Source of the DNA: an uncultured bacterium
GTDB taxonomy: Bacteria > Hydrothermota > UBA3072
DNA length: 64,000 nt
Direction: 5' to 3'
NCBI GenBank assembly: GCA_964534175.1
Contig: CAZHNS010000003.1
Span: 63,939 to 127,938 of the forward strand
Position 1 is the first letter of the stretch; each line of letters begins with the position of its first letter. A program made the position numbers and the translations under genes. Positions 4,162 to 21,089 of this stretch are shown piece by piece. The notes below the pieces were generated by a model that was not told the origin of the DNA, did not search any database, and saw only the letters and a list, made by a program, of their open reading frames with translations.

Positions 4162-4560
4162 CTAGGAGCCCCCGATAAGTTTTTTGATTTCTTTTAATAA
4201 GTCTTTAGCTTCGATAGGCTTTTCCATAAAAACGTTTACAGGCATATATTCCATGTCTTCATTCTGTCCAAGGTGGAATTTGGCCATTTCTGAGTCCTGA
4301 TTTACAGCGGTTATCATGATAATAGGAATTTCCTTTAACTTATCGTCAGACCTAATTTTTTCGCTCACCCATATACCGTCGGTCTTTGTTTTCATCATAA
4401 TATCCAACAATATAATATGGGGAGTTTTCTTTTTAACTTGTTTGAATGCTTCTTCACCGTTTCTGGCAGTCCGAGTCTCATAACCATTACCTTGCAATAT
4501 TATTTCTATCGTTTCTACGAAATCGGGGTCATCATCCACAATAAGTATTTCTTTTGACAT
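4162..4560 (-). CDS. Response regulator, stand-alone receiver (CheY-like) domain
   Basis: ILIVDDDPDFVETIEIIL...LLDIMM phospho-acceptor Asp context; 132 aa single domain; start overlaps upstream kinase stop (operon). Confidence 0.75.
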   Translation of the reverse strand: MSKEILIVDDDPDFVETIEIILQGNGYETRTARNGEEAFKQVKKKTPHIILLDIMMKTKTDGIWVSEKIRSDDKLKEIPIIMITAVNQDSEMAKFHLGQNEDMEYMPVNVFMEKPIEAKDLLKEIKKLIGGS

Positions 4561-5489
4561 TATTTCTCCTTTTTTTGAATTACGGGAAAGCTCACTTCTA
4601 CTGTAGTTCCTTTATTTAAATTACTTTTCACTTTTATGGTCCCACCATGAGCATCGATTATTCTTTTGACGAGAGAAAGTCCGAGCCCCATACCTTCCTT
4701 TTTATGTTCGGGACGCGCGTTTTCGCCACGGAAGAAGATATTAAATATCATTGGTAGTTCTTTTTTCTTTATACCTATACCCTGGTCTTTCACTCGTAGC
4801 AATAAAGAGTTGTTTTTTTTGTTTTCAGTTATCTTCACCTGATTTCCCGGGTTACTGTATTTGATTGCGTTATGAATTATATTTACAAAAGCTCTTCTTA
4901 AGAGTTCCGGATTCCCATAAATGGGAGGTATATCATCGGAGATATCCCAGTTCATTTTAATATTGTTTTCAGCTGCGAATGAATCCATTTCTTCGTTCAG
5001 AGAAGATAGTAATTCTCCCATGTTGATTTTTTCTATTTCTATTTCACCTGTTCCTTCTTCGAGGTGAGAAAACATTAACAGATCGTTCAAAAGTTTTATA
5101 ACGTCGTTTATCCTTACTTTTGCTCTGTTGAGAAGTTCTTTTTGTTTTTTAACATCTTTTTCGAGGTAACCATCCAGTATTACGTTTAAAATATTATAAA
5201 CTGAAGCCAGTGGTGCCTTTAATTCATGTGATACTTCATAAGTGAATCTGGTTTTGGCTTTTGTTAGCTCGACGGTTTTCGCGTAATGTTCGCTGCACGC
5301 AGCCTTGGCTTCCTTGGAATGTTTTCTAATGCCTTTTAGATTTTTAATTAAGGATGTTATGTCGGATTCAAGCTTCCCATGCCAGTCCCTGATTCTATCA
5401 AGGTGGCATTCCGGATCGTTAATATTACATATTTTAGGTTCCATGCTCTTTTCTCTCTTTAATATTAGGTAAATTAAGAAAAAATGCAA
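4560..5489 (-). CDS. Cytoplasmic sensor histidine kinase (HisKA + HATPase_c), Cys-containing N-terminal region
   Basis: H-box SHELKAPL, N-box IIHNAIKYS, G-boxes DQGIGI / GMGLGLSLV; no TM segment. Confidence 0.75.
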   Translation of the reverse strand: MHFFLIYLILKREKSMEPKICNINDPECHLDRIRDWHGKLESDITSLIKNLKGIRKHSKEAKAACSEHYAKTVELTKAKTRFTYEVSHELKAPLASVYNILNVILDGYLEKDVKKQKELLNRAKVRINDVIKLLNDLLMFSHLEEGTGEIEIEKINMGELLSSLNEEMDSFAAENNIKMNWDISDDIPPIYGNPELLRRAFVNIIHNAIKYSNPGNQVKITENKKNNSLLLRVKDQGIGIKKKELPMIFNIFFRGENARPEHKKEGMGLGLSLVKRIIDAHGGTIKVKSNLNKGTTVEVSFPVIQKKEK

Positions 5490-5547: not shown

Positions 5548-5567
5548 AATGTGATTTTTTTCACAAC
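5548..5567 (+). promoter_or_regulatory. Rex-type operator (TGTGA-N6-TCACA) abutting the -35 box of the Ehr-like operon promoter
   Basis: aaTGTGAttttttTCACAAc at 5548-5567; TTGACA at 5568-5573 then 17-nt spacer and TATTAA; rex gene encoded at operon end; a TTGTGAA half-site also at 5602-5608. Confidence 0.4.
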
Positions 5568-5671
5568 TTGACAAACTTCTAAATTATTATTATTAAACTT
5601 TGTGAATTAAATATTTAAGTTAATTAATTCTTTTTTCATTTAGATAAAGAGTTGAAGTAACGGAGGGTTAA

Positions 5672-6196
5672 TTGTATAAAAATGAGGGTTTTACTGTAAA
5701 AGAAAGAATAAAAAGTTTCTGCTGGTTGTTTTTCTTCCTTGTTATCCTCTGGTTACTGCTTACCTCGACTTTTAATTCTCAGGAATTAATAGTTGGTGTT
5801 TTTGTTTGTTCTGTAATTGCTCTTGTAACTTATAAATTTTATATTAAATTAGGTTTTCCTTCTGTAAGCCTTAAGAAGTTTTACTTTTCTCTTGTTTATA
5901 TATTAGTTCTTTTTTTTGAGATATTGAAAGCCAATATAGATGTAGCCCTGCGAGTTATCCGTCCCTCCCTGCCAATAAATCCCGGTGTAATAATTATAAA
6001 GACAGGCCTTAGATCAGATATCGCAAAAACAATTCTGGCTAATTCCATAACTCTAACGCCCGGTACATTTACTCTGGATATTCAAGGAAATAAATTACTA
6101 ATTCACTGGATAGATGTAGAAGCGACTGATATTGATGCCGCGACTAATATTATAGGCGAAAGATTCGAAAAATATTTGAGGGTTATATTCCAATGA
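5672..6196 (+). CDS. Mrp/Mnh antiporter subunit E-like (MbhA-like)
   Basis: MrpE-type membrane N-terminus and LTPGT motif; TTG start with GGAGGG RBS; first gene of 13-gene operon. Confidence 0.65.
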   Translation: MYKNEGFTVKERIKSFCWLFFFLVILWLLLTSTFNSQELIVGVFVCSVIALVTYKFYIKLGFPSVSLKKFYFSLVYILVLFFEILKANIDVALRVIRPSLPINPGVIIIKTGLRSDIAKTILANSITLTPGTFTLDIQGNKLLIHWIDVEATDIDAATNIIGERFEKYLRVIFQ

Positions 6197-6447
6197 TTGC
6201 AACAATTTATTTTGTAGTTATAGGCTTAGGGGTTGTCTTATGTTTGCTCAGGATGATTAAAGGTCCTACTGCTCCTGATCGTGCTGTCGCGCTGGATACA
6301 GCGGTGACAGTCACAGTCGCGTTGTTGGTCCTTATTGGTCTTGTCCTCCGAAGAAGAATATATCTTGATGTTTCATTGGTATATGCTGTTCTAACCTTTA
6401 TAGGTTCAGTTGCAATAGCAAGATATCTTGAGGGAGGAATCGAATGA
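6193..6447 (+). CDS. Mrp/Mnh antiporter subunit F-like
   Basis: 84 aa, 3 TM, MrpF/PhaF-like pattern (LLRMIKGPTAPDRAVALD); overlaps neighbours by 4 nt. Confidence 0.65.
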   Translation: MIATIYFVVIGLGVVLCLLRMIKGPTAPDRAVALDTAVTVTVALLVLIGLVLRRRIYLDVSLVYAVLTFIGSVAIARYLEGGIE

Positions 6448-6782
6448 TCTGGGGCTGGTGGGTTACGGGGTTTGGTGTAATATTTTTGTTCCTGGGGAGC
6501 CTCGGCGTATATAGGATGCCTGACGTATACAATAGATTGCAGGCGGGAACAAAATGTACGACACTTGGCGCTTTCTGTACCATTATTGGTGTTGGAATAA
6601 TAGAGCCTTCCTGGTTCTGGACAACTTTTATAATCGCGGTATTTGTATTATTGACTAACCCAATATCGAGTCATGCACTTGGAAGAGCGTCCTGTATTTC
6701 AAAAGTCAAACTCTGTAAAAAAACAAAGGTTGATCAATCGGAAGGTTTTTGTAGCGAAGGGGATGATGAAGATGATTCTTGA
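6444..6782 (+). CDS. Mrp/Mnh antiporter subunit G-like
   Basis: MnhG-like N-terminus (FLFLGSLGVYRMPDVYNRLQAGTK...); translational coupling. Confidence 0.65.
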   Translation: MIWGWWVTGFGVIFLFLGSLGVYRMPDVYNRLQAGTKCTTLGAFCTIIGVGIIEPSWFWTTFIIAVFVLLTNPISSHALGRASCISKVKLCKKTKVDQSEGFCSEGDDEDDS

Positions 6783-7017
6783 AGTAATCCTGGTTTTCGT
6801 AATGCTTGTGGGTGCCGTTGCTGCCGGTTTTTTTAAAGATTTGTTAAACGCGGTAATCGCTGCCGGCTTTGTTAGTTTTATTGCGGCGATACTCTTCTAT
6901 TTTCTTCATGCTCCCGATGTAGCTATGGCTGAAGCTTCTATTGGTGCTGCCTTAACTGTAGCAATTTTCATAATAGCTATTAAGAAAACAAAAAGATTCG
7001 AGGAAGATGATGCGTAA
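6763..7017 (+). CDS. MnhB-domain small membrane subunit (MbhD-like); start taken at internal ATG 6763 rather than ORF-track 6673
   Basis: ORF 6673-7017 overlaps MrpG-like gene for 110 nt; ATGATGAAGATG at 6763 gives 84-aa 3-TM protein matching MnhB-like DUF4040 proteins of Mbh/Mbx clusters. Confidence 0.5.
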   Translation: MMKMILEVILVFVMLVGAVAAGFFKDLLNAVIAAGFVSFIAAILFYFLHAPDVAMAEASIGAALTVAIFIIAIKKTKRFEEDDA

Positions 7018-7693
7018 GATAATTAGTTTTATTTTAATAACAATAATAGCAGCAGGTATCTTTTTCTCACTGGAGGAAGTACCTTTTGGAGCCACGAAAA
7101 GCAGAGTGAGAGAGTATTATCTTGATAACGGTATAAAACAAACAGGAGCTACAAATATAGTGACATCTGTGGTGGTTAATTATCGTGGTTTTGATACTCT
7201 CGGAGAAGTAACTGTACTGTTCCTCGCGAGTATTGGTCTTTCCGCGGTTCTTTACAGAAAAAAAGAAGAGAGAGGAAAAAAGAGAAGAGAGAGCAGTTTG
7301 ATTTTATATACCGGCTGCAGGTTTTTGTTTCCTCTTATTCTCCTTTTCGGTTCATACATATTTATTCATGGCCATTTGACTCCCGGAGGAGGTTTTCAGG
7401 GAGGAGCTATCATAGCATCCGGGTTTTTGCTAACCATGCTTGGTTGTTGGGGATGGGAAGGAATTAACAGGAACAGATTTAAGATAACAGAATCTCTCTC
7501 GGGTCTTGCCTTTGTTGTTATAGGTCTTCTTGGATTACTTTACGGAGGGTATTTCCTTTTTAATTATCTGCCCAAAGGAATACCTAATCAGCTTTTTAGC
7601 GCCGGAATTATTCCTCTTGTGTATATTGCCATAGGATTCAAAGTGGGTTCGGAGATTGCGGGTATAATAAATGATATGGTGAGGAGCGGGTAA
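7007..7693 (+). CDS. Mrp/Mnh antiporter subunit B-like (MbhE/F-like)
   Basis: MnhB-domain pattern (GATNIVTSVVVNYRGFDTLGEVTVLF); multi-TM. Confidence 0.6.
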   Translation: MMRKIISFILITIIAAGIFFSLEEVPFGATKSRVREYYLDNGIKQTGATNIVTSVVVNYRGFDTLGEVTVLFLASIGLSAVLYRKKEERGKKRRESSLILYTGCRFLFPLILLFGSYIFIHGHLTPGGGFQGGAIIASGFLLTMLGCWGWEGINRNRFKITESLSGLAFVVIGLLGLLYGGYFLFNYLPKGIPNQLFSAGIIPLVYIAIGFKVGSEIAGIINDMVRSG

Positions 7694-8052
7694 TGGAATT
7701 CATAGAAAATTATCTGTATTATATCGCATCCTTTGGTTTAATCCTTATAGGTCTTTATATAATGCTTATCAAGAAAAATTTGATAAAAATTATTATAGGT
7801 CTTTCAATTATAGATACGGGAGTAAATATTTTATTAATTACTATGGGTTATTTAAAAGAAGGAACCGCTCCTATTTTCTCACGTGAGGGTTTACTGCCTT
7901 CAAGGATGGTAGATCCCGTGCCACAGGCACTGGTTCTGACTGCTATTGTGATAGGAGTTGCAATTCTTGCGCTTGCATTGACTCTGGCGGTAGTCCTTTA
8001 CCGTCATTACGGAACTCTCAATGTTAGAAAAATAAGGAATCTTAAATGGTAA
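7693..8052 (+). CDS. Mrp subunit C / NuoK-like small membrane subunit
   Basis: 119 aa, 3 TM; NuoK/MrpC-like fold; coupled ATG overlapping previous stop. Confidence 0.65.
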   Translation: MEFIENYLYYIASFGLILIGLYIMLIKKNLIKIIIGLSIIDTGVNILLITMGYLKEGTAPIFSREGLLPSRMVDPVPQALVLTAIVIGVAILALALTLAVVLYRHYGTLNVRKIRNLKW

Positions 8053-9524
8053 ATCCTGTTTTACTTATAATTATTCCTTTAGCCGGAGCTTTTGCTATAC
8101 CGTTATTTGGTTTTATTTCCAAACACATATCAAAATATATTTCTTTAATTTCTACTCTGGTAATGGCTGTAATTGTGGGTTTTTTAGTTCCGCAAGTTAT
8201 AAACAATCCCATAATTGTTTTGATTGGAGGTTTTAAGCCACCTTTTGGTATCAACCTTGTTGTAAGCCCCTTTTCTCTGTTTTTCGCGGGTGTTATAAGC
8301 TTGCTTGGTTTTCTTGTGTCCATTTATGCTATAAAATATATCGATGATGGAGATATCGAAAAGTATCACCTTTTATTTCTGCTTTTCATAACAGGAGCCA
8401 CAGGAGTTGTCCTTACAGGTGACATATTTAACTTATTTGTTTTCTTTGAGATACTCTGTATTTCTTCCTACGCTCTGGTTGCTTATAACAGGGATAGGGA
8501 TGGAGTGGAAGCCGGTATAAAATACCTCATTCAGGGTTCTGTGGGTTCGTCTTTTATTCTTATTGGAATAGCCCTAATTTATGGACTTTGCGGCTCATTG
8601 AATATGGCAGATATAGCAAGTCAAATTCATTCCGTAAATTCCCCCTTATTATCTCTTGCGCTGTTTCTTTTTCTTACAGGTTTTGGAATCGAAGGAGCTA
8701 TATTTCCACTGAATGCCTGGTTACCCGATGCTCACGCGAGTGCTCCCTCGACTATAAGCGCTGTACTTTCCGGTTTTGCAATCGAAGTAGGAGTATATGC
8801 AGTCGTGCGGTTTGTCTGGACCATATTCGGAGCGTTAAGTATTCTTCATTTTCTTGCAGGACTTGGAGTTCTGACACTGCTTGTTGGTGAACTAGCAGCT
8901 TTCAGGCAAAATCGTATTAAGCGCATGCTTGCTTATTCATCAATAGGGCAGATAGGTCTTATTGTTTTTGCTTTTGGGATAGCTTCTACTGCAGGAGTTA
9001 AAGGAGCTTTATTACAAATTGCATCTCATGCAATGGCAAAAGCTTTGCTCTTTTTGGCTGCAGGTTATATGATATATAGAGCGGGATCTAAGGATATTTC
9101 TTCGCTGGAAGGAATGGGGAGAAGAATGCCTTTTACTTCTTTAGCTTTCACGGTAGGAGCTTTTTCGCTTGTGGGTTTTCCGCCTTTTGTAGGGTTCTCC
9201 AGTAAGTTTTTAGTAATAAAAGCTGCATTGGCTGAAGGACAGCTTATATTTACCATTCTTATCGGGTTTGTTTTATTAGGCACAATAATCGAAGGATCTT
9301 ATTTCCTAAAAGTAATTCAAACAATTTATTTTAAAGGGGGAGAAGTTAATTCTAATAAAAGAATAGAAGCTCCTATCTGTGCTTTGATTCCCATGGTTAT
9401 TTTGCTTATGCTAATCGTAGTTGTAGGGGTATATCCAGGCTTAATAAATAGCGTTTTAGACTCGGCAGCTTCAGGGTTCCTGGATAGAATGCAGTATATT
9501 AAGACCGTATTGGTAGGAATATAA
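8046..9524 (+). CDS. MrpD/NuoM/NuoN-family proton-translocating antiporter-like subunit
   Basis: 492 aa, about 14 TM; conserved WLPDAHA motif region (AWLPDAHASAPSTISA). Confidence 0.75.
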   Translation: MVNPVLLIIIPLAGAFAIPLFGFISKHISKYISLISTLVMAVIVGFLVPQVINNPIIVLIGGFKPPFGINLVVSPFSLFFAGVISLLGFLVSIYAIKYIDDGDIEKYHLLFLLFITGATGVVLTGDIFNLFVFFEILCISSYALVAYNRDRDGVEAGIKYLIQGSVGSSFILIGIALIYGLCGSLNMADIASQIHSVNSPLLSLALFLFLTGFGIEGAIFPLNAWLPDAHASAPSTISAVLSGFAIEVGVYAVVRFVWTIFGALSILHFLAGLGVLTLLVGELAAFRQNRIKRMLAYSSIGQIGLIVFAFGIASTAGVKGALLQIASHAMAKALLFLAAGYMIYRAGSKDISSLEGMGRRMPFTSLAFTVGAFSLVGFPPFVGFSSKFLVIKAALAEGQLIFTILIGFVLLGTIIEGSYFLKVIQTIYFKGGEVNSNKRIEAPICALIPMVILLMLIVVVGVYPGLINSVLDSAASGFLDRMQYIKTVLVGI

Positions 9525-9536
9525 AGGAGTTAAGAG

Positions 9537-11390
9537 ATGCTTTTAGAGGTACTGCTTATAGTCGCATTTGGGGGAGCGTTTCTGACCTATCTCCTTGGGA
9601 AAATTTCTTCCAGATTACGCGATGTATTTGCAGTTCTTGTCTCTTTAGCTTTGGTAGTTATTACCTGTTTGCTTTACAACAAGCAACAGCAAATAGTTTA
9701 CTTTGCATTCTTCGACAACCCTCTTATTCTTAGATCGAATATGCTTTCCTGGTTTTTCGGTATTACAATCGTAGGGATTGGTTTTCTGTCGGTAATTTAT
9801 TCTTTGGGATACATGGGGAAAGAAGAAAAATTGGATTATTATTACTTTATAGTGATACTTATTAATGCATCTATGATTGGAACTGTTTTTAGTGGTGACT
9901 TTATATCATTTTTTATGTTTTGGGAAATAATGAGTTGGAGTACCTTTCTTTTAATAAGCTATAAGGGAGGTAAGGCGTTATCTGCTGGAATGAAGTATAT
10001 AATTATGTCAATTATTGGGTCCATGACTATGTTAATTGCTATTATTAGTTTATATGTTACCTGTGGTACTCTGGAATTTTCTTCCCTGGTTTCTCAAGTG
10101 GAAATTACTTCAATGAGCTACAATTTATTCCTTCTCATTATGTTTGGGGTTGTCTTTACCATTATTAATGCATTCTGGCCACTTCACACCTGGCTTCCTG
10201 ATGCACATGCGGAAGCCGTGAGTCCCTTTTCATCGATTCTTTCAGCAGTACTTGTAAGAAAGGGGTTGTATGGACTCTACCTCGTTATGTATATAATATT
10301 AGGTTTAAATGTCTTGAATAGGTTGACTTTCGGATTTATAAGTTATAATAATGTGTTCTGCTTCATTGGTGCGGTGACTATAGTTTTTGCGGCATTTAGT
10401 GCTTTTCTTCAGGATGATAGTAAGAGAATTCTTGCCTGGAGTACGGTTGGTCAGGGTGGTTATATGATTTTGGGAATTGCGTTTACCACAGCTATTGGGC
10501 TTGCTGGAGGTATGTTCCACGTTTTGAATCATTGTATTTATATAGGTTTACTTTTCTTCGTGGCTGGCGCAGTGGAACGCCAAACCGGAGGGATAAGAGA
10601 TATAAATAAGTTAGGTGGATTAATTAAAAGAATGCCTGTTACTTTTATTGGAGGCGTGGTGGGTATATCTGGTTTAATTGGGCTGCCCTTAACCTGTGGT
10701 TTTGTTTCCAAATGGTTAATATATAAAGCGTTAATTTTGGGAAACCGTCCATTTTTAGCATTTGCTGCATTTATGGGAACCTGGGGAACCATTTTGTACG
10801 GATATAAATTTATTCATAACATTTTCTTAGGTCAGTTGCCGAAAGAATTCGAAGATGTCAAAGAAGTTCCCTTTTCAATGAGATTCCCCATAATTTTATT
10901 GACAATAGCGGTTATTTTAATTGGCGTTCTTCCCGGCATACCCCTTAAAGTCATAAATATTATTAATGTTTCTGCCGGTTTTAAAGCTTTATCGATAAAT
11001 ATATCAGGTGTTATTTCGGAGACGGGTGTGTTAAATACTGTAAATATCTTTACCGCCATTTTAGCGGCTTTGTTAGTAATTTATTTATTATTCCGTACAG
11101 GTGCCGAATCAGAGAGAGTCTCCCAGGAAGATTCTTATGCTGCAGGTTCATATATTCCTGTAGGGAAATATCATTACACTGTTAAATTTTACGATCCGTT
11201 TTCCAGACTTGCGAAACCATGGCTGAAGGATAGGATAGATAATTTTTACGAATGGTTAACCCGCATAGTGGAGAAAATAGCTGAAAGACAAAGGCGTATT
11301 TATACAGGAGATTTAGGTTTTTACCTCGTATACATTGTTCTTTTTCTGGCAGCATTGATTTTTGTGCGGATTATATGTAGGCAATGGTGA
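9537..11390 (+). CDS. MrpA/NuoL-family antiporter-like subunit (second large antiporter subunit, MbxH'-like)
   Basis: 617 aa; TWLPDAHAEAVSPFSSILSAV motif of complex-I subunit L/M/N superfamily; long C-terminal extension. Confidence 0.75.
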   Translation: MLLEVLLIVAFGGAFLTYLLGKISSRLRDVFAVLVSLALVVITCLLYNKQQQIVYFAFFDNPLILRSNMLSWFFGITIVGIGFLSVIYSLGYMGKEEKLDYYYFIVILINASMIGTVFSGDFISFFMFWEIMSWSTFLLISYKGGKALSAGMKYIIMSIIGSMTMLIAIISLYVTCGTLEFSSLVSQVEITSMSYNLFLLIMFGVVFTIINAFWPLHTWLPDAHAEAVSPFSSILSAVLVRKGLYGLYLVMYIILGLNVLNRLTFGFISYNNVFCFIGAVTIVFAAFSAFLQDDSKRILAWSTVGQGGYMILGIAFTTAIGLAGGMFHVLNHCIYIGLLFFVAGAVERQTGGIRDINKLGGLIKRMPVTFIGGVVGISGLIGLPLTCGFVSKWLIYKALILGNRPFLAFAAFMGTWGTILYGYKFIHNIFLGQLPKEFEDVKEVPFSMRFPIILLTIAVILIGVLPGIPLKVINIINVSAGFKALSINISGVISETGVLNTVNIFTAILAALLVIYLLFRTGAESERVSQEDSYAAGSYIPVGKYHYTVKFYDPFSRLAKPWLKDRIDNFYEWLTRIVEKIAERQRRIYTGDLGFYLVYIVLFLAALIFVRIICRQW

Positions 11391-11394
11391 TATT

Positions 11395-12276
11395 ATGAAG
11401 GTTGCTTCGTTTTTCATCTTACCTATTATCGGCTTTACAGTTGGTATATTTTTCATGGGTTTATCCAGAAGAATAATGGCTAGGATACATTGGAGATATG
11501 GTCCTCCTCTGGTTCAACCACTTCTTGATATCATAAAGCTCTTTCACCAAAGAAGTATATCCCATGGAGTTATTTTTGAACTTGGTCTTCTTCTTTCCTT
11601 AGCCGGGAGTATAGTTACTCTTCTTTTTATTCCTATAGGCAATATATGTGCACTCGATATGTCTGGAGGACTTCTGGTAATTTTATATCTTATGCTTTTA
11701 GCGCCTTTCGGCATAGCTTTATCAGGAGGAGAAGCGGCAAATCCAAACGCGAGTATTGGAATTTCCCGAAAGATGCTTTTGGCTTTGAGTTATGAAGTTC
11801 CATTTCTTTTAGCTCTTCTGGCGGTTATGATAGAATATAACACGATCTCTATAGTTGAAATAGTTGAGCTTCAGAGGGCTTCGAGTTGGGGAATTGTTTC
11901 TCTACCTTTATCGGCTATAGCTCTTTTCCTTATTTTACCAGCAATGCTCGGCATAAGACCCTTTGATGTGGTAGGAGCACCGCAGGAGATCGCTTCCGGT
12001 CCAAAAGTTGAATATGGCGGTAAATTTTTAGCATTATATAATATTGAACGAGCTTTTCATGAGTTTATTATTATTGCGCTATTTGTTAATTTGTTCCTTG
12101 GGGGGGCTAATGACCCATTCACTTTCTTTCTAAAGATGTTAATAATATTTGTACCTTTTATCAGTGTTAGTGCTGTTTTTCCAAGATTTAGAATTGAACA
12201 AGCAATTCGCTTCTGCTGGAGATTGCCGACTATTTTGGCTCTTATAGGTTTGATTATTGCAAGTGTGTGGAGGTAA
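11395..12276 (+). CDS. NuoH/HycD/MbhM-like membrane subunit (respiratory complex I subunit 1 family)
   Basis: RIMARIHWRYGPPLVQPLLDIIKLF matches NuoH/HyfC N-terminal signature; ATG 11395 chosen over ORF-track 11362. Confidence 0.7.
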   Translation: MKVASFFILPIIGFTVGIFFMGLSRRIMARIHWRYGPPLVQPLLDIIKLFHQRSISHGVIFELGLLLSLAGSIVTLLFIPIGNICALDMSGGLLVILYLMLLAPFGIALSGGEAANPNASIGISRKMLLALSYEVPFLLALLAVMIEYNTISIVEIVELQRASSWGIVSLPLSAIALFLILPAMLGIRPFDVVGAPQEIASGPKVEYGGKFLALYNIERAFHEFIIIALFVNLFLGGANDPFTFFLKMLIIFVPFISVSAVFPRFRIEQAIRFCWRLPTILALIGLIIASVWR

Positions 12277-12836
12277 AAATGGATAGAAAAGTTGTAAGGA
12301 AATGGTTGAAGGATCCAGAAAAAATGGGTAATAAGTATTCTCTCTGGGCTGTTTATTTCTGCACGGGCTGTGGAATAATTGAAGTTCCTCCGGTTATAAC
12401 TTCTCGCTGGGATGCAGAGAGATTTGGCGTTATTCCTGTAGCGACCCCAAGACAGGCAAATTTGTTTTTAATTACGGGTTATGTCTCTCTGAAAACTTTA
12501 AGAGCTATCATAAGGACCTATGAGCAGATGCGAGAGCCAAAATATACAGTAGGGTTTGGTTCATGTCCGATAAACGGAGGTATGTACTGGGATTCATACA
12601 ACACCATCAAACACCTTGATAAATATATACCGATTGATGGTTGGATTGCCGGTTGTATGCCTAGACCTGAAGCGATATTTATTGCAGTAACGCATCTATG
12701 GACTTTGATCGATAAGGGTATGGCAAACGCATACAAAAAGTACAGAAAACAATATAAATATTATCGAAGGAATCAGGAAATGGCGCTGGGAAAACTCGAA
12801 TGGCCACCCCTGTACCCAATAATTGAAGATGAATAA
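12267..12836 (+). CDS. NuoB/hydrogenase-small-subunit-like [4Fe-4S] subunit (MbhJ-like)
   Basis: Four Cys in CTGCGIIE ... GSCP ... AGCMPRPE arrangement; CxxC (hydrogenase-small-subunit type) rather than CC (NuoB type). Confidence 0.75.
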   Translation: MEVKMDRKVVRKWLKDPEKMGNKYSLWAVYFCTGCGIIEVPPVITSRWDAERFGVIPVATPRQANLFLITGYVSLKTLRAIIRTYEQMREPKYTVGFGSCPINGGMYWDSYNTIKHLDKYIPIDGWIAGCMPRPEAIFIAVTHLWTLIDKGMANAYKKYRKQYKYYRRNQEMALGKLEWPPLYPIIEDE

Positions 12837-13338
12837 AAAGATAATTACAGAATTAGAAACGACGTTTAAAGATATTGAAGTAAATGCTTCTAAGGATACC
12901 AGAATGGAAATTTGTGCTCGTGAAGAGCAGATTTTAGCAATTTTGAGATTCATTGCCAATAAGGGTTATGACCATTTAGCCCTTATCTCCTGTGTGGATT
13001 GGATTGAAGAAGAGGAATTTGAATTGGTTTATATAATTACCTCTTACTCGCAGGAAAATAAGGTATACCTGGATAAGGGAGATATTTTTCTCAAGACAAG
13101 AATTGCAAGAGAAAATCCGGAAGCACGAACGGTAATTCCGATTTTTGCCAATGCTGAGCCGTATGAACGAGAGATTCATGAGCTCTTCGGAGTGAAGTTT
13201 AACGGTCATCCAAGATTAACACATCTTCTGTTAGAAAGAGATTATGAAATACCCCCATTCAGGAAAGATTTTGATACAAGAAAGTATGTTAAGGAAGTTT
13301 TTGATTCAATTCCTGCAATCACAGAGGAGGAAGAGTGA
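12823..13338 (+). CDS. NuoC-like (30-kDa subunit; MbhK-like)
   Basis: EREIHELFGVKFNGHPRL matches NuoC ERE..D(L/M)FG signature. Confidence 0.7.
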   Translation: MKMNKKIITELETTFKDIEVNASKDTRMEICAREEQILAILRFIANKGYDHLALISCVDWIEEEEFELVYIITSYSQENKVYLDKGDIFLKTRIARENPEARTVIPIFANAEPYEREIHELFGVKFNGHPRLTHLLLERDYEIPPFRKDFDTRKYVKEVFDSIPAITEEEE

Positions 13339-14432
13339 GAGAAGTTGAACTCTATTTTGGTCCGCAGCACCTCGGGATGGTAGGAAATTTTAGTATAACG
13401 TTGAAGGTAGAGGGAGATCGTATTTTAGAAGCTACTGCGAATCCGGGATTTCTTCATCGTGGATTTGAGAAGTTGATGGAATGTCGAACCTGGATACAAA
13501 ATTTTCCCATGGTTTGTAGAATAAACGTTGTAGAGCCTGATCATATGGAAATGGTGTATGCAATGGGAGTGGAGAAATTAGCAAATATAGAAGTGCCGGA
13601 AAGGGCGCAGTGGATAAGAAGTATATACCTTGAACTTGCTAGAGTTGGTTCGCATCTTTTTGGTTTGTGGGCTTATTCCAATATGTTGGGTTTTGATACT
13701 GTTGCTCAGTGGGCGATGTACCATAGAGACCTGATTCTGGATCTTTTCGAGGAATTAACAGGCGGGAGGGTATATCATATTTATATCTGGCCTGGTGGGG
13801 TAAGACGTGACTTTCCGAAGGGTTTTACAGATAAAGTCGTAGAGACTTTACATTCAATAGGGAAGTGTGTTCCCGATTATAACGATACATTTTTCAAAAA
13901 TCCGCTGTTTTATGAGAGAACTCATGATATAGGAAAAGTAACGAGAGAAGAAGCAGAGAAATGGGGAGGAGTAGGACAGGTATTAAGAGCTACAGGAAAG
14001 TCCTTTGATATAAGGAAGGTGGAGTCCTATGCAGCTTATGATAAAGTGGATTTTAACATACCCACAAGAGAAGACGGAGACGCGTATTCGAGGATTATGG
14101 TGATAAGAGATGAAATGATAGAATCCGTTCATTTGATTTTTAAACTAATTGAAGGATTACCGAAGGGAGAAGTTTATAACAAAGTACCCAATCCTTTTAA
14201 GTGGAATATCGAAGAAGGTGAATCTTATGTAAGAGTTGAATCTTCGAGAGGAGAATTAGGGCTTTATCTGGTAAGTGATGGCGGAGATAAACCTTATAGA
14301 GTCCATTTTAGAACGCCTTCTTATTCTCATGGTCTAACAATATTAGAGAAAGTCTTAGAAGGCGCTAATATCTCGGATGTAGGAAATATCATGATTAGTA
14401 TGTACGTTGTCGCTCCTGAGATAGATAGATGA
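13335..14432 (+). CDS. NuoD-like / [NiFe]-hydrogenase-large-subunit-like catalytic subunit LACKING both Ni-Fe cysteine motifs
   Basis: GFLHRGFEKLME (NuoD/EchE-type HRG.EK) but no RxCGxCxxxH after it and C-terminus ...YVVAPEIDR has no DPCxxCxxH. Confidence 0.7.
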   Translation: MREVELYFGPQHLGMVGNFSITLKVEGDRILEATANPGFLHRGFEKLMECRTWIQNFPMVCRINVVEPDHMEMVYAMGVEKLANIEVPERAQWIRSIYLELARVGSHLFGLWAYSNMLGFDTVAQWAMYHRDLILDLFEELTGGRVYHIYIWPGGVRRDFPKGFTDKVVETLHSIGKCVPDYNDTFFKNPLFYERTHDIGKVTREEAEKWGGVGQVLRATGKSFDIRKVESYAAYDKVDFNIPTREDGDAYSRIMVIRDEMIESVHLIFKLIEGLPKGEVYNKVPNPFKWNIEEGESYVRVESSRGELGLYLVSDGGDKPYRVHFRTPSYSHGLTILEKVLEGANISDVGNIMISMYVVAPEIDR

Positions 14433-14456
14433 GAAAAATGAGTAATTTAAATTTAG

Positions 14457-16331
14457 GTGAGGTTTACAGAAATGGATAAAAAAACTTCAATTCTGAGTCC
14501 GTTAAAGGCGTTAAAATATCTTTTCAAAAAACCAAAAACTTTAAGATATCCGTTTGAACTTAAAGAGCCTGCAGAAAGATATAGAGGTTTACATCTAAAT
14601 GATTGGGATCAGTGCACGGGTTGCGGAAACTGTGCAGATATTTGTCCTAATGAGGCAATTCTTATGAAAGAAATACCGGAAATCGAGGCAAAAGACGGAG
14701 AGAGAAATGAGCGCCCCGAAATAGATTACGGTAGATGCTGTTTTTGCGGATTATGTGTTGATATTTGTCCGACAGGTTCCATCCGGCTATCCAGAGATTA
14801 TTTTCATATCCATTTTGACCCCAAGACTTTCAAGCTTCTGGCAAAAGATGAAAAAACGGACGGGGAACACTTCCTTCCTGAGGGGAAATATTCTATTCTT
14901 AAAGCATCGCTTGCCCATCGAAGAAAAAATTATGAGGGTTTTAGTTCTGACTTAGAATACGCACTGTTTGACCCTGAAAGAGTACAGATGTCTCAGGCTT
15001 CACCCAAAGAGAGAAAATCCTCTTTTATTGAACAGGTAAAGGGTTTCAGCGCACAGGAGGCTCTAAAAGAAGCGAGTCGATGTTTGGAGTGTAAGTTATG
15101 CGAGGAAGTCTGTCCTGCCGGTATGGATATAGTTGATTATGTACGCAATTTATGGGAAGGTGATTTAGAGGAAGCGGTCAGGGATATTTACAAAACAAAT
15201 CCCTTACCCGGCGTTTGTGGTAGAGTTTGCACGCATAATTGTGAGTCTGCCTGTGTACTTAGTCATCGAGGTGAACCTGTATCTATAAGATGGTTAAAGC
15301 GTTATGTTGTGGATAATCTTTCTCTTTCCGAATATCAAAAGGTGCTTGAAACAGAAAAAATTAAATCTATAGGGAAAAAAGTTGCTATAATTGGCGCGGG
15401 TCCGGGAGGCTTATCGGCTGCTTATTATCTCAGATTGATGGGTTATAAGGTCGTTATCTTTGAGAAGTTGCCCGAACCCGGTGGGATGCTGAGATATGGT
15501 ATTCCTGAATACCGACTTCCCTATGAAGCTTTAAATAAAGATATTGAATATATAAAATCTGTAGGAGTAGATATTAGATGTGATAATACTGTTGGCGAGG
15601 ATATTTCACTTGCTGAACTTCGGGATAATTATGACGCGGTTTTTGTGTCTACTGGTTTTCATGCCGGGCGGAGTACCGGAGTTCCGGGAAGTAAAAACCC
15701 TCACGTTTTTCAGGCAATAGAATTACTCAGAAAGGTGACGATGGGAGAAGAGATTGAAGTTACCGATAAGATTGTGGTAATAGGTGGGGGAGATGTTGCT
15801 ATGGATATTTCGAGAACACTTGCCCGATTGCAGATGAAGAAATTTGGAGCTGTAGATATTACTCTCAGTTGCTTGGAAACGAGGGACATTATGCCCGCTA
15901 CTCCGGAAGAAATAGAGGAAGCTCTTGAAGAAGGCATTAAAATGTATCCGGGATGGGGTCCGGAGAAGATTATTATAGAAAAAGAAAAAGTTAAGGGTAT
16001 AGTTATGAAAAAGTGCCTCAGGGTTTTTGACGAAGAAGGAAAGTTTAATCCTGAATTTGATGATAAGGAGAAAAAGGATTTTGAGTGTTCGATGGTCGTT
16101 GAAGCAATAGGGCAGGCACCTGATTTTACTTTTATATCAGAAGATATAAAAGTAAAACTTAAATATGAGGGAAGAAGGATGAAAGTTAATGAGTATGGTC
16201 AAACTTCATTGCCTTGGTTATTCATCGGAGGAGATATCCTGAGGGGTCCCGATGTAATTAACGCTATCGATACCGGACATAAGGCCGCAAGAGGTATCGA
16301 TAAATTTATCTCCTCCAAAGAGAAAAAATAA
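14457..16331 (+). CDS. Fusion protein: NuoI-type 2x[4Fe-4S] ferredoxin (N-term) + GltD/NfnB/SudA-like FAD/NAD(P)H oxidoreductase (C-term)
   Basis: CTGCGNCADICP and CCFCGLCVDICP (NuoI-like); then CLECKLCEEVCP + CGRVCTHNCESAC (GltD-type Fe-S), GXGXXG FAD site VAIIGAGPGGLSAAYYL and second dinucleotide site VVIGGGDVAMD. Confidence 0.75.
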   Translation: MRFTEMDKKTSILSPLKALKYLFKKPKTLRYPFELKEPAERYRGLHLNDWDQCTGCGNCADICPNEAILMKEIPEIEAKDGERNERPEIDYGRCCFCGLCVDICPTGSIRLSRDYFHIHFDPKTFKLLAKDEKTDGEHFLPEGKYSILKASLAHRRKNYEGFSSDLEYALFDPERVQMSQASPKERKSSFIEQVKGFSAQEALKEASRCLECKLCEEVCPAGMDIVDYVRNLWEGDLEEAVRDIYKTNPLPGVCGRVCTHNCESACVLSHRGEPVSIRWLKRYVVDNLSLSEYQKVLETEKIKSIGKKVAIIGAGPGGLSAAYYLRLMGYKVVIFEKLPEPGGMLRYGIPEYRLPYEALNKDIEYIKSVGVDIRCDNTVGEDISLAELRDNYDAVFVSTGFHAGRSTGVPGSKNPHVFQAIELLRKVTMGEEIEVTDKIVVIGGGDVAMDISRTLARLQMKKFGAVDITLSCLETRDIMPATPEEIEEALEEGIKMYPGWGPEKIIIEKEKVKGIVMKKCLRVFDEEGKFNPEFDDKEKKDFECSMVVEAIGQAPDFTFISEDIKVKLKYEGRRMKVNEYGQTSLPWLFIGGDILRGPDVINAIDTGHKAARGIDKFISSKEKK

Positions 16332-16341
16332 TTTCGAGAGA

Positions 16342-16974
16342 ATGGACAAAGAAGATATCCCAAAAGAGACAATAGAAAGACTTCTATTTTATACAAAGTG
16401 CCTATCGACTTTTAAACAATCAGGCAAGGAACAGTTTTCATCAGCGGATATTGCCAGGAGGTTAAAACTTAAGCCCACATTGGTGAGGAAAGATCTCTCT
16501 TATATTGGACGGATTGGCAGAAGAGGGATTGGCTATAATGTTGAAAGAGTTCTGGACAAGATAAATCGAGTCGTTTATTATGAAAAAGAGCATCAGGTTG
16601 CTCTTATAGGTGTGGGGAATATCGGAAAAGCATTAATAAATTATCCCGGATTTCAAGCACACGGATTGGTTATAAAACTCGCTTTCGAGAAAGACAAGGA
16701 AAAAATCGGTAAGGAAATTTATGGCGTTAAAATTGAAGATATAAAAACACTTAAAAAAAGAGTGGCAGAGGAAGAGATAAAAGTCGGAATTATAGCTGTT
16801 CCTCCTATTCAGATTAAAGAAGTTATTGATATTGTTAAAGACTCAGAAATAAAAGCGATTCTTAATTTTACCTCCACATGTATGATGCCCTATGACGATT
16901 TAAAAGGGAAGTTAAAGATAAAAAATATCGATCTAGCGGTTGAGATGCAAAGATTGGTGTATTATTCATCATAA
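16342..16974 (+). CDS. rex: Redox-sensing transcriptional repressor Rex
   Basis: N-terminal winged-helix IPKETIERLLFYTKCL...RKDLSYIGRIGRRGIGYNV and Rossmann VALIGVGNIGKAL typical of Rex; 10 nt after the NuoI-GltD gene. Confidence 0.8.
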   Translation: MDKEDIPKETIERLLFYTKCLSTFKQSGKEQFSSADIARRLKLKPTLVRKDLSYIGRIGRRGIGYNVERVLDKINRVVYYEKEHQVALIGVGNIGKALINYPGFQAHGLVIKLAFEKDKEKIGKEIYGVKIEDIKTLKKRVAEEEIKVGIIAVPPIQIKEVIDIVKDSEIKAILNFTSTCMMPYDDLKGKLKIKNIDLAVEMQRLVYYSS

Positions 16975-19623: not shown

Positions 19624-20787
19624 TTAAAATGCGTCTTTTATAATTCCTCTTAATTCTTCATCGGTTAAAACTATTGGGTTACCCTGCATACTGTTTGATA
19701 TTTTTGCTTTGCCTATCAATTCTTCGATTTGTTCTTCTTTTAAATCGACTTCTGAAAGATGAGGCATATTTAGTTTTTCGTAGAGTTCATCTGTCCATTG
19801 GATTAAGTCTTTCGGTTTTGCTTTTTCGTTTTTTGTTACTATTCTTGCGATTTTTTCATATTTTTTGAATACTACAGATGAAGGTTTACGTTCCTCGAGG
19901 GCTTTGATATTTGCTTTTATAACATAGGGCAGAAGGATGCCGCAAACTACGCCATGGGGAGCGCCTATCATACCTCCCATTGGTCCTGCGAATCCGTGGA
20001 CTGCTCCGAGTTTCGCGTTCGCGAGGGCTATTCCGCCAAAGAGACTTCCTATGCACATATCTTCCCTTGCTTTTGCTTCGGTAGGATTGTTAAATGCTTT
20101 TAGAAGGGAGCGGCTTATTCTTTTTATTCCTTCCTTGCAGATTGCGTCTGTTAACATATTCGCTTTTATTGAAACATAGGGTTCTATTACCTGCGTGAAA
20201 GCGTCGAGTCCGGTACTTGCCGTTACCTCTTTCGGCATCGAATAGGTTAGTACTGGATCGAGTATAGCAATATCCGGGAGCATAAAAGGACTCCTGAGAC
20301 TAACCTTTACGGAGTGTTCATTTGATTTTATTACTGCGTTTTTAGTCACTTCCGTTCCTGTTCCCGCGGTTGTCGGTACCGCTATAAACGGAATAGTAGG
20401 GTTCTTTATGGGTTTGCCTCTGCCTATTACCTCTAGATAATCAAAGAGATCTCCTCCGTTTGTTACGAGAGCGGATACCGCTTTACCCGTATCTATGGCA
20501 CTCCCTCCTCCTATTCCAATTATTACGTCGGTTTTACTTCGACTGGCTAGTTTTAGACATTCGGTAACAACATTGGTTGTGGGTTCACCGTTTACGGAGA
20601 ACGTTTCGAATTTTATTTTTTTCTTTGTGAAATCGTCGAGTAAAAATTTACACCTGTTTTGATTTTTACCTGTGACGATGAGAGGCTTTTCCCCGAGATT
20701 TAAAGCATTATCCGGGATTTTTTCTGCGGATCCGTCCCCAAAAATTATCCATTTCGCGGTTGCGAATTCAAAGCGAGTTGCGTTCAC
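19624..20787 (-). CDS. Iron-containing (group III) alcohol dehydrogenase
   Basis: [16 protein letters not shown]-binding motif and His-rich metal site (HGVVCG / HGFAGP) of Fe-ADH family. Confidence 0.85.
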
Positions 20788-21089
20788 CAGTCTGAATCTT
20801 CCGGAAATAAGTTTGAGAATTTAACACTGAATCTGGGTTCTGCCATCATGTCGGCAACCGAGTCTCTCCACTTTTTATAGTGGTCTGTTTCTTTATGTTT
20901 GGCTGGGTCGTCCGGGGTTTTATAAACTTCATTGAGAACGAATTTACTTTTATCATCATTTTGCTGAAGCACGTCGAATTGTGCTATTCCCGGTTCTTGT
21001 ATGCTGTTTTGGGCATTCTCGATTGATATTTTTTTGAATTCTTCGATTTTATCTTCTTTTACATGAACATGTACATGTACCACAAGCAT
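20784..21089 (-). CDS. ABM-domain (antibiotic biosynthesis monooxygenase-like) small protein
   Basis: 101-aa ferredoxin-like ABM pattern; stop overlaps ADH start (co-transcribed). Confidence 0.55.

Follow-up and report, generated by a model that had tools for sequence, protein, structure and literature searches.

Which donor and which acceptor serve a complex-I-like enzyme that has kept neither the metal ligands of a hydrogenase nor the quinone ligands of complex I? The question is raised by a cluster of 14 closely packed plus-strand open reading frames (ORFs) at positions 5672-16974 of a 64-kb stretch of DNA (the window below; contig CAZHNS010000003.1, from an uncultured bacterium of the Hydrothermota), consisting of 13 genes in mbx/MBS order (5672-16331) and then rex. 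On the grounds of gene order and of the fit of all seven tested subunits to MBS, we assign the locus to the Mbx/MBS type, that is, to the 13-subunit complexes in which a complex-I-like descendant of the group 4 hydrogenases is set on an Mrp antiporter module. Our preferred reading, which we hold at a probability of ca. 0.5, is that it encodes a Rex-derepressed, NADH-oxidizing, ion-translocating MBS-type complex whose acceptor would probably be sulfane sulfur.

The architecture has already been described, and the locus is one more, well-supported member. In Thermotoga and proteobacteria, an mbx-like operon has been described in which a gltD-related subunit replaces NuoI (PMC4758237), the 13-subunit MBX of Thermotoga maritima has been discussed as an MBS homologue and reported to be sulfur induced (PMC9431562), and the Mbx of Mesotoga has been used in metabolic models (bioRxiv 10.1101/322537). 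These bacterial operons (T. maritima, Mesotoga, and Magnetococcus) likewise combine an Mrp module with NuoH, NuoB, NuoC, and NuoD homologues, 13 subunits in all, with a gltD-related flavoprotein at the NuoI position, a likeness drawn from the published descriptions and from the NCBIfam model NF010590. For comparison, we used a set of related loci numbered L003 to L088.

Subunits and catalytic interface

The subunits were searched against all solved structures, the MBS reference being 6u8y from Pyrococcus furiosus. A chain of 6u8y was the top solved-structure match for all seven subunits tested, with margins of 50 to 200 bits (H, H', M, J, L, and the N domain). The scores were as follows (aa, amino acids).

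NuoD-like subunit (L): MBS, 339 bits, 45% identity; complex I NuoD, ca. 230 bits; MBH (MbhL), 131 bits
NuoB-like subunit (J): MBS, 217 bits, 58% identity; NDH-1 (NdhK), 127 bits; MBH (MbhJ), 95 bits
NuoH-like subunit (M): MBS, 196 bits; NuoH, 82 bits; MbhM, 79 bits
492-aa subunit (H): MBS, 366 bits; MBH (MbhH), 281 bits
617-aa subunit (H'): MBS (6u8y_X, 618 aa), 230 bits over the full length; Nqo12, 125 bits; MbhH, 186 bits
N-terminal 110 aa of the fusion protein (N): MBS, 113 bits; Nqo9, 60 bits; MBH, 51 bits

The P. furiosus MBS (formerly MBX; PDB 6u8y; PMC7684303, PMC8165549) likewise has 13 subunits in an identical gene order, no functional NiFe site, and two antiporter-like subunits, H and H', in addition to the Mrp module. 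In MBS, however, MbsN stands alone and is fed by free ferredoxin, whereas here an MbsN-type domain is fused to a 450-aa NfnB-type flavoprotein. The host also differs from that of the archaeal enzyme in being bacterial and probably mesophilic, with rex linked to the operon. The order A-B-C-D-E-G-H-H'-M-J-K-L-N was found in the window and also in every related locus with sufficient contig, across many phyla. The genes are these.

5672-6196, plus strand: MbsA, MnhE-like, 174 aa (PF01899, E value of 2.8e-39)
6193-6447, plus strand: MbsB, MnhF-like (MrpF_PhaF; PF04066, E value of 2.3e-19)
6444-6782, plus strand: MbsC, MnhG-like (PhaG_MnhG; PF03334, E value of 3.2e-25)
6763-7017, plus strand: MbsD, MbhD-like, N-terminal half of a split MnhB (PF13244, E value of 2.7e-19)
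7007-7693, plus strand: MbsE, MbhE plus MnhB domain (PF04039, PF20501)
7693-8052, plus strand: MbsG, MnhC/NuoK-like (Oxidored_q2; PF00420, E value of 1.5e-28)
8046-9524, plus strand: MbsH, antiporter-like (Proton_antipo_M), 492 aa (6u8y_H, 366 bits)
9537-11390, plus strand: MbsH', second antiporter-like subunit (Proton_antipo_M) with a C-terminal extension, 617 aa (6u8y_X, 230 bits)
11395-12276, plus strand: MbsM, NuoH-like membrane anchor (NADHdh; 6u8y_M, 196 bits)
12279-12836, plus strand: MbsJ, NuoB-like (Oxidored_q6), proximal [4Fe-4S] cluster motif C-x2-C, C, C (6u8y_J, 217 bits)
12823-13338, plus strand: MbsK, NuoC-like (Complex1_30kDa; PF00329, E value of 3.5e-31)
13335-14432, plus strand: MbsL, NuoD-like without NiFe ligands (Complex1_49kDa; 6u8y_L, 339 bits)
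14472-16331, plus strand: MbsN-NfnB fusion (two Fer4, Fer4_20, and Pyr_redox_2), 619 aa
16342-16974, plus strand: rex, redox-sensing repressor, 210 aa (PF06971, Put_DNA-bind_N, and PF02629, CoA_binding)

All elements of the Mrp module and all the NuoH, NuoB, NuoC, NuoD, and NuoI homologues of the original prediction were recovered by their Pfam domains where it had placed them, and its coordinates were mostly right, except that the Rex box described below lies at 5549-5566 rather than at 5548-5567 and that several genes start further downstream. Orthologue lengths put the true starts at ca. 6763, 11395, 12279, and 14472, 3' of the mechanical ORF starts; thus, the MbhD-like gene likely begins at the ATG at 6763 (mechanical start, 6673), its orthologues being 83 to 84 aa long. 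The mnhE gene, which has an equivalent position in all related loci, starts with TTG, preceded by GGAGGG at 5662-5667. Adjacent genes overlap by 1 to 20 nt or are separated by 2 to 12 nt, the widest gap (24 to 39 nt) lying 5' of the fusion gene. These junctions confirm the tight packing of the genes that had been called translationally coupled, and the coupling itself may be presumed from it. As a variation on this layout, a gene for a PF01883 iron-sulfur (FeS) assembly protein is inserted between the NuoC-like and NuoD-like genes in one related locus (L008:8553-8855).

The cluster had been placed in the class of energy-converting hydrogenase-related (Ehr) complexes, which is correct in the broad sense of PMC6349859, where group-4-like subunits without NiFe ligands occur with Mrp antiporter-like subunits and Mbx is cited as one Ehr type. 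The NuoB/C/D/H/I set without NiFe cysteines and the Mrp-type subunits that define the class are all present, and classification against the structure database narrows the assignment to the Mbx/MBS type. For the Ehr complexes of Riflemargulisbacteria and Saganbacteria, formate dehydrogenase and NuoE/F-like partners were proposed (PMC6349859), while here the input module is fused into the last operon gene.

The loss of the NiFe ligands from the NuoD-like subunit, which had been read from this single protein, extends to the whole family. In the alignment to solved structures, the four NiFe cysteine positions are occupied by N, E, V, and E. Our comparison comprised 69 NuoD-like sequences, that of the window and 68 from related loci, and in these 68 the positions hold N, E/D, V/T/I/A, and E, with a single Cys kept in one sequence. 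The NiFe site is missing in 69/69, which marks its loss as a feature of the family rather than an error of sequencing. We rejected a hydrogenase, since both the L1 (RxCGxCxxxH) and the L2 (DPCxxCxxH/R) cysteine pairs are missing from the large subunit. The MbsL of P. furiosus keeps two of the four cysteines as vestigial residues, whose mutation leaves MBS activity unaffected (PMC7684303), and vestigial cysteines in the NuoD homologue are also a feature of the papers on Thermotoga-type mbx; the protein encoded in the window, in contrast, has none. Such a complete loss appears to be unreported in the searchable literature.

The proposed catalytic center of MBS is the proximal [4Fe-4S] cluster of MbsJ, which has three Cys ligands and a CxxC loop three residues shorter than that of MBH (PMC7684303). 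The NuoB-like protein aligns to MbsJ over this loop (FCTGCG) without gaps and has the same cysteine spacing (C-x2-C, 64, 30). All four cysteines are present in 54/57 orthologues, the first being the only one ever replaced (in 3); it is the equivalent of C25 of MbsJ, which is not a ligand (PMC7684303). Loop length and cysteine conservation would be compatible with a three-Cys ligation of the proximal cluster as in MBS, and the catalytic site as a whole looks MBS-like, neither hydrogenase-like nor quinone-reductase-like.

With its NuoH, NuoB, NuoC, NuoD, and NuoI homologues and antiporter-like subunits, the layout resembles that of complex I, and NCBIfam names the subunits NuoD and NuoB. The complex could accordingly be an NADH:menaquinone oxidoreductase in which an NfnB-like domain takes the place of NuoEFG and quinone is reduced in the pocket formed by NuoB, NuoD, and NuoH, an acceptor that would provide a large driving force. 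We regard this as improbable. The quinone-ligand positions of Nqo4, H38 and Y87, are Val and Val in the window protein, and in 69/69 sequences they are Val/Val, with Ile in a few. The NuoB-like protein has the CxxC of the hydrogenases and MBS, not the tandem CC of complex I (PMC7684303), all seven tested subunits are much nearer to MBS than to complex I, and neither NuoA, NuoJ, nor a quinone biosynthesis gene was found in the window, which covers 64 kb of a larger genome. The common ground with complex I is a modular logic, in which a nucleotide-oxidizing module is followed by the NuoI/NuoB wire of FeS clusters, the NuoD/NuoH interface, and antiporter-like pumps. In complex I, though, the NADH module is NuoEFG, with flavin mononucleotide (FMN), whereas here it is of the NfnB type, with flavin adenine dinucleotide (FAD), and NuoA and NuoJ, both present in complex I, are absent here, with a full Mrp module instead. 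A standard nuo cluster, the outcome against which the original prediction had set its reading, was rejected because the quinone ligands are gone and NuoA, NuoJ, NuoE, NuoF, and NuoG domains were not found in the window. Likewise missing from the window are further nuo genes and any hydrogenase, quinone, NfnA, or sulfur gene.

The fused flavoprotein and its predicted nucleotide

The part of the complex that distinguishes it from MBS is the product of the last mbx gene. In this 619-aa protein, residues 1-110 form a 2x[4Fe-4S] domain of the MbsN/NuoI type, residues 111-170 form a linker, and residues 170-619 form a module of the NfnB/SudA/GltD type with two [4Fe-4S] clusters, FAD, and an NAD(H) site. 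All the hallmarks of the NfnB/GltD type are present, namely two [4Fe-4S] sites (one with four Cys, the other with three Cys and a Glu) and the Rossmann motifs for FAD and NAD(P)H. The ligands of the NfnB-type clusters (C204/207/210/214 and C249/253/257/261 with E258) and the motifs GxGxxG and GGGxxAxD are invariant, and in the NuoI-type domain the eight cysteines vary little or not at all. The gene starts with the ATG at 14472, as in the deposited protein; an in-frame GTG five codons earlier (14457) would give 624 aa.

That a NuoI-type ferredoxin and a GltD/NfnB-like flavoprotein are fused in one protein had been recognized from this locus, together with the risk that an assembly frameshift had joined two genes. 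We rejected the frameshift: a 100% identical 619-aa protein is found on independent assemblies, homologues are full length, and hundreds of lineages have kept the fusion. With residues 1-330, which cross the junction, as the query, we found at least 377 GTDB species representatives, among them WOR-3, Aerophobetes, Zixibacteria, Fermentibacteria, Planctomycetota, Bacteroidales, Spirochaetota, Latescibacteria, KSB1, Eisenbacteria, Sumerlaeota, Elusimicrobia, Desulfobacterota, and others, with the 13-gene order 5' of the fusion gene wherever the contig was long enough. The closest named relatives belong to candidate division WOR-3 (77 to 80% identity in the fusion protein), to which the source bacterium is probably related, and the best 120 database matches are nearly all 609 to 632 aa long with an equal domain set (one has 575 aa). 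The NCBIfam model NF010590 ("putative oxidoreductase") describes the full-length fused protein and matches it with 853 bits over residues 4-617. In two variants of the fusion protein, P0079 (753 aa) and P0099 (747 aa), a rubrerythrin domain is added at the C terminus, which recalls the published remark that rubrerythrin is a frequent last member of mbx-like operons (PMC4758237).

By sequence, residues 170-619 are nearest to the NfnB of T. maritima (4ylf_B, 259 bits) and the NfnI of P. furiosus (5jca_L, 249 bits) and more distant from GltD (189 bits) and DPD (135 bits). An AlphaFold model of the monomer, built on a 45-homologue alignment, had pLDDT (predicted confidence) values of 85 to 97 across the NfnB part, and its best fold matches were 5jca_L (TM-score of 0.88, root mean square deviation of 2.4 Å), Xfn, and 4ylf_B, with TM-scores in the range of 0.87 to 0.89. 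Residues 1-39 and the linker (108-165) had pLDDT values of <50, and the connection of the two cluster pairs is therefore not informed by the model. The linker (HFLP..KYS..KASL.HR..) is well conserved across phyla despite this low value, which suggests that its folding depends on contact with the other subunits. NfnB, NfnI-L, SudA, and DsrL (4ylf, 5jca; PMC7596348, PMC6405883) share the fold, the [4Fe-4S] ligand sets, including the Glu, and the FAD and dinucleotide motifs, and in DsrL an NfnB-type module is likewise joined to a ferredoxin domain that passes electrons to a partner enzyme. The fused protein differs from them in having a NuoI/MbsN-type ferredoxin domain at the N terminus and a 5-residue insertion in the NAD-binding domain.

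The nucleotide can be predicted from one short motif. In the NfnB of T. maritima, Y310, R311, and R312 hold the 2'-phosphate of NADPH, and kinetics show that DsrL enzymes with YRR use NADP(H), while those with S/T-L/V..-F/E.. use NAD(H) (PMC7596348). Aligned to 4ylf_B, the window protein has C-L-E at the YRR position, in which it resembles the DsrL-1 enzymes, users of NAD(H). All 116 homologues in which the motif could be located (of the 120 closest) have [CS]-L-E, and L468 and E469 do not vary across the 45 aligned sequences. A preference for NAD is classically marked by a Glu that ends the second strand of the dinucleotide fold. Since the motif for the NADPH phosphate is replaced by C-L-E, NADH is predicted to be the nucleotide used by the fusion flavoprotein, which fits a regulator that senses NADH/NAD+. 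The link to NAD(P)H that was originally proposed is thus upheld and narrowed to NADH. An NAD(H)-type motif across the fused proteins examined appears to be unreported in the searchable literature.

The nearest relatives of this module are the bifurcating subunits NfnB and NfnI-L and the modules of NfnABC and Stn, and it has kept the Glu that is an unusual ligand of the proximal cluster in NfnB. Flavin-based bifurcation or confurcation, with FAD splitting the electrons of NAD(P)H between the FeS chain and a second partner such as ferredoxin, has nevertheless very little probability in our estimate. It would call for an NfnA/PyrK-like subunit for the second electron path, and Nfn has NfnA as its partner, but no such subunit was found in the operon, the window, or the related loci. 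The NADPH motif of bifurcating NfnB is lost, and in GltD, DPD, and DsrL homologous modules simply let in electrons from NAD(P)H (PMC7596348).

The rex gene and the operator upstream of the operon

The rex gene starts 10 bp 3' of the fusion gene, and its product passes the NCBIfam model NF003995 with 213.6 bits (cutoff, 126) as well as the equivalogs NF003989, NF003994, and NF003996. An automatic scan found no terminator-like site between the fusion gene and rex, at a performance no better than chance in A+T-rich DNA; in this A+T-rich window, the promoter and terminator scan was uninformative (37 sites versus 33.5 expected). Upstream of mnhE we located three elements.

5549-5566: candidate operator, the Rex box ATGTGATTTTTTTCACAA, with the palindromic core TGTGA-N6-TCACA
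5568-5596, plus strand: candidate sigma-70 promoter, TTGACA (5568-5573), 17-nt spacer, TATTAA (5591-5596), read from the sequence, with a putative function
5599-5607, plus strand: TTTGTGAAT, a perfect left Rex half-site without a right half, just 3' of the candidate -10

The Rex box matches the consensus TTGTGAANNNNTTCACAA (PMC6391272) at 12 of 14 specified positions (2 mismatches), and its 3' end lies 1 nt before the -35 element. The TTTGTGAAT element is invariant in the window, L011, and L012 and could be a weak second Rex contact, the region of the transcription start, or the site of another factor.

Boxes of this quality are not more frequent than expected by chance, and the count by itself would agree with a palindrome that arose by accident. 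One box with ≤2 mismatches was found in the 64 kb versus 0.56 expected (44 of 100 shuffles have at least one), and four with ≤3 mismatches versus 5.9 expected. The significance of the box comes instead from its position and conservation. Box, -35, -10, and TTTGTGAAT form a block of ca. 75 bp that is nearly invariant in the window, L011, and L012, the latter two having an identical box ca. 100 bp 5' of mnhE, while the DNA 5' of the box is unalignable. Boxes with 1 or 2 mismatches were found 11 to 200 bp 5' of mnhE in Aerophobetes (L018 and L021) and in two Bacteroidales loci (L084 and L063), and directly 5' of rex where rex leads a rex-mbx unit (L027, L035, L060, and L082; L039 with 3 mismatches). 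When the window and the loci (1.12 Mb) were scanned at ≤2 mismatches, 10 of the 18 boxes fell within the 8.65 kb (0.8%) just 5' of the unit (binomial P = 3e-17).

The operon flanks are unrelated genes, a divergent histidine kinase/response regulator (4162-5489, minus strand) on the 5' side and a convergent GH3 glycosidase on the 3' side, and the box lies 60 bp from the kinase start. It might therefore be fortuitous or serve the kinase/response regulator, with the operon free of Rex, a possibility that agrees with the chance-level count and with the lack of a box in the available DNA of L005 to L008. We give it hardly any weight, however. In L011 the upstream neighbor is different, and the block of box, promoter, and leader stays with mnhE; it is thus tied to the operon rather than to the kinase. 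Boxes before the operon or before rex-mbx also occur in independent lineages (Aerophobetes, Fermentibacteria, Eisenbacteria, and others), and rex is linked to the operon in two different arrangements, directly 3' of the fusion gene in 9/64 loci and directly 5' of mnhE in 5 or 6 of 31. The association of rex and Rex boxes with the operon is recurrent across phyla, although not universal. The presence of rex 3' of the operon and of a Rex-type operator at its promoter, both seen in the original prediction, is confirmed by the NCBIfam models, the conserved block, and the enrichment, and repression of the operon by Rex would be the natural consequence.

Four points weigh against Rex control as a part of our preferred reading. 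The P value assumes independent loci, and the window, L011, and L012 are close relatives, although at least seven separate lineages contribute. The rex gene is adjacent in a minority of loci only. No box was seen in the close WOR-3 relatives L005 to L008 within the available upstream DNA; the contig of L007 ends 150 bp 5' of mnhE, and in L005, L006, and L008 an extra upstream gene puts the promoter beyond the flank scanned for boxes. Finally, the box lies 5' of the -35, which is atypical for simple promoter occlusion. Taken together, the missing boxes of L005 to L008 and the minority adjacency of rex indicate that Rex control is lineage specific.

For Thermotoga-type mbx, neither a rex linkage nor an NADH-specific motif has been reported in the searchable literature, and the same literature, whose scope misses the main survey of Rex regulons (Ravcheev et al. 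2012) and RegPrecise, reports no link between Rex and mbx. For Rex control of an NADH-oxidizing respiratory complex in general, the complex I of Streptomyces coelicolor offers a precedent, Brekasis and Paget having reportedly described in 2003 that its NADH-oxidizing nuo is under Rex.

Several observations were made around rex in individual loci. In L005, L006, and L008 (positions 1-1273; 1-916 in L008), the extra gene encodes a 552-aa FAD_binding_2 flavoprotein of the fumarate reductase/aspartate oxidase type and ends 2 nt (L005 and L006) or ca. 30 nt (L008) 5' of mnhE, like an additional first gene of the operon. The rex gene is truncated or fragmented in L005 (132 aa, 11897-12295), L007 (183 aa, 10701-11252), and L008 (three small ORFs, 11968-12443) and intact in L006, L011, L013, and L014; the regulator may be decaying in loci that have lost its operator. 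At L008:12495-12512, a Rex box with 2 mismatches, TTGTGAAAAAATTATCAA, lies 20 bp 5' of an FAD_binding_4 plus CCG gene pair of the glycolate oxidase/D-lactate dehydrogenase type. In the window, genes for an Fe-alcohol dehydrogenase and an ABM monooxygenase-like protein stand near rex (19624-21089, minus strand), and in L007 rex is followed by an equivalent pair. Rex typically controls alcohol dehydrogenases, but in the window no box with ≤3 mismatches was found 5' of the pair.

Proposed electron flow, acceptor, and ion translocation

From the scaffold, the active site, the flavoprotein, and the regulator, we infer the direction of electron flow, the acceptor, and the pumping of ions. NADH would reduce the FAD of the NfnB-like part, whose two [4Fe-4S] clusters would pass the electrons to the two clusters of the MbsN part and from there to the proximal cluster, which the NuoB-like subunit holds where it meets the NuoD-like and NuoH-like subunits. 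This cluster would reduce an acceptor that is neither quinone nor proton, most likely sulfane sulfur or polysulfide, and the reaction would be conformationally coupled to the translocation of H+ or Na+ through H, H', and the Mrp subunits. With rex closing the transcription unit and its operator abutting the -35, the complex would be made when NADH/NAD+ rises, a high ratio derepressing the operon and the complex acting as an NADH sink. Such a mechanism is the simplest fit to an MBS scaffold with a non-NiFe, non-quinone site, an attached NADH-type flavoprotein, and an expression tied to an NADH sensor. The original prediction had left the partner substrate open (quinone, polysulfide, or other), a caution that we judge right; sulfane sulfur or polysulfide is suggested by the homology to MBS and by the induction of the mbxA of T. 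maritima, which was 4.4-fold with elemental sulfur (S0) (PMC9431562).

The main rival is an ion-translocating ferredoxin:NAD(P)+ oxidoreductase, in which electrons would run in an Rnf-like manner from ferredoxin through the FeS chain and the flavoprotein to NAD+ and drive the export of Na+ or H+. This is the older published view of Mbx and of the bacterial mbx-like operon, put forward for Thermotoga and proteobacteria (PMC4758237) and for Mesotoga (bioRxiv 10.1101/322537). The span from ferredoxin to NAD+ (ca. 130 to 180 mV) is ample for pumping, MbsN is the ferredoxin-docking subunit in MBS (PMC7684303), and NfnB-type modules are reversible (PMC7596348). Nonetheless, it would place both substrates at the distal peripheral arm and leave the conserved coupling site without a substrate, and it was modeled on the Mbx of P. 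furiosus, which has since been found to reduce polysulfide directly (PMC7684303). A release of Rex repression at high NADH is more in keeping with an enzyme that consumes NADH than with one that produces it, yet Rex regulons also include non-NADH enzymes (PMC6391272). All in all, we consider a ferredoxin:NAD(P)+ oxidoreductase unlikely, and the quinone reductase and the bifurcating enzyme less likely still.

As to the preferred reading of an NADH-oxidizing, sulfane-sulfur-reducing pump, a number of findings count against it. The homology from which the acceptor is taken is to an archaeal enzyme, with 45 to 58% identity. The span from NADH to polysulfide is only ca. 50 to 60 mV (ca. 10 kJ per 2 e-), a marginal one for pumping ions, although MBH conserves energy on a similar span of 12 kJ (PMC8165549). 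Neither in the window nor in 47 related loci does the operon have a sulfur metabolism gene linked to it, and in WOR-3 SM1_77 a gene for a 2x[4Fe-4S] ferredoxin directly 3' of the operon (L003:11920-12288) hints at an involvement of ferredoxin, as the rival would have it. Some charged residues along the pump axis of the P. furiosus MBS also differ here. The K217 of MbsH', the Lys of transmembrane helix (TM) 7, is Asn (Asn or Ser in 46/46 orthologues), and its K344 is Ile (as in about half of the orthologues). In MbsH, K250 is replaced by Glu (29/42) and H330 by Gln (40/42), and in MbsM, E104 is replaced by L and E193 by R. Other positions are kept, the TM5 Glu, TM11 His, and TM11 Lys of MbsH being invariant in 42 orthologues and the MbsM equivalents of D196, E203, and E211 being conserved. 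MbsH' may not be a canonical proton channel. It is also the fastest-evolving subunit, with 51 to 58% identity where its neighbors have 80 to 90%.

No conserved neighbor that would reveal the acceptor was found; the related loci gave only Rex, ArsR, Fur, and DtxR-like regulators, ferredoxin, OsmC, and Fer4_22 proteins, with no sulfur or quinone gene among them. Among the genes directly 3' of the fusion gene, which vary by lineage, those for Fer4_22 proteins of the HydB/AsrA type occur in Zixibacteria (L034:3447-4526, L066:11931-12980, and L061:6239-7351), and those for ArsR- or Fur-family regulators occur in L024, L028, L054, L036, and L059.

Bacterial Mbx enters models of Thermotogae and candidate phyla routinely, as a ferredoxin:NAD(P)+ oxidoreductase or as a sulfur reductase. 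The NAD(H)-type motif (in all 116 proteins in which it could be located) and the recurrence of rex and Rex operators in unrelated phyla provide two handles that point to an NADH-oxidizing role, and with both the question is directly testable in a cultured carrier. Somewhat more tentatively than for the locus itself, we suggest that the widespread bacterial Mbx could be an NADH-specific, Rex-governed, ion-pumping NADH:sulfane-sulfur oxidoreductase, a "complex I for sulfur" whose NADH module was gained independently of NuoEFG. If so, a complex-I-like scaffold would have acquired an NADH dehydrogenase module a second, independent time, through the fusion of an NfnB-type flavoprotein onto a NuoI-like subunit. 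Uncultured anaerobes such as WOR-3, Aerophobetes, Zixibacteria, Fermentibacteria, Planctomycetota, and Bacteroidales would then have in this complex a major, unrecognized means of disposing of NADH and conserving energy, and the modeling of redox balance would change for many of them.

The remaining window has housekeeping genes (SMC, McsB/ClpC, ParAB, TopA, GltX, RNase PH, and LptE) and, besides the Fe-alcohol dehydrogenase, also codes for proteins with the sorting tail of the type IX secretion system (T9SS). Two long ORFs, of 727 aa (1189-3372) and 473 aa (28378-29799), have no Pfam match, and a 382-aa protein encoded at 36004-37152 gave strong matches to WD40 repeats, as in a WD40 beta-propeller.

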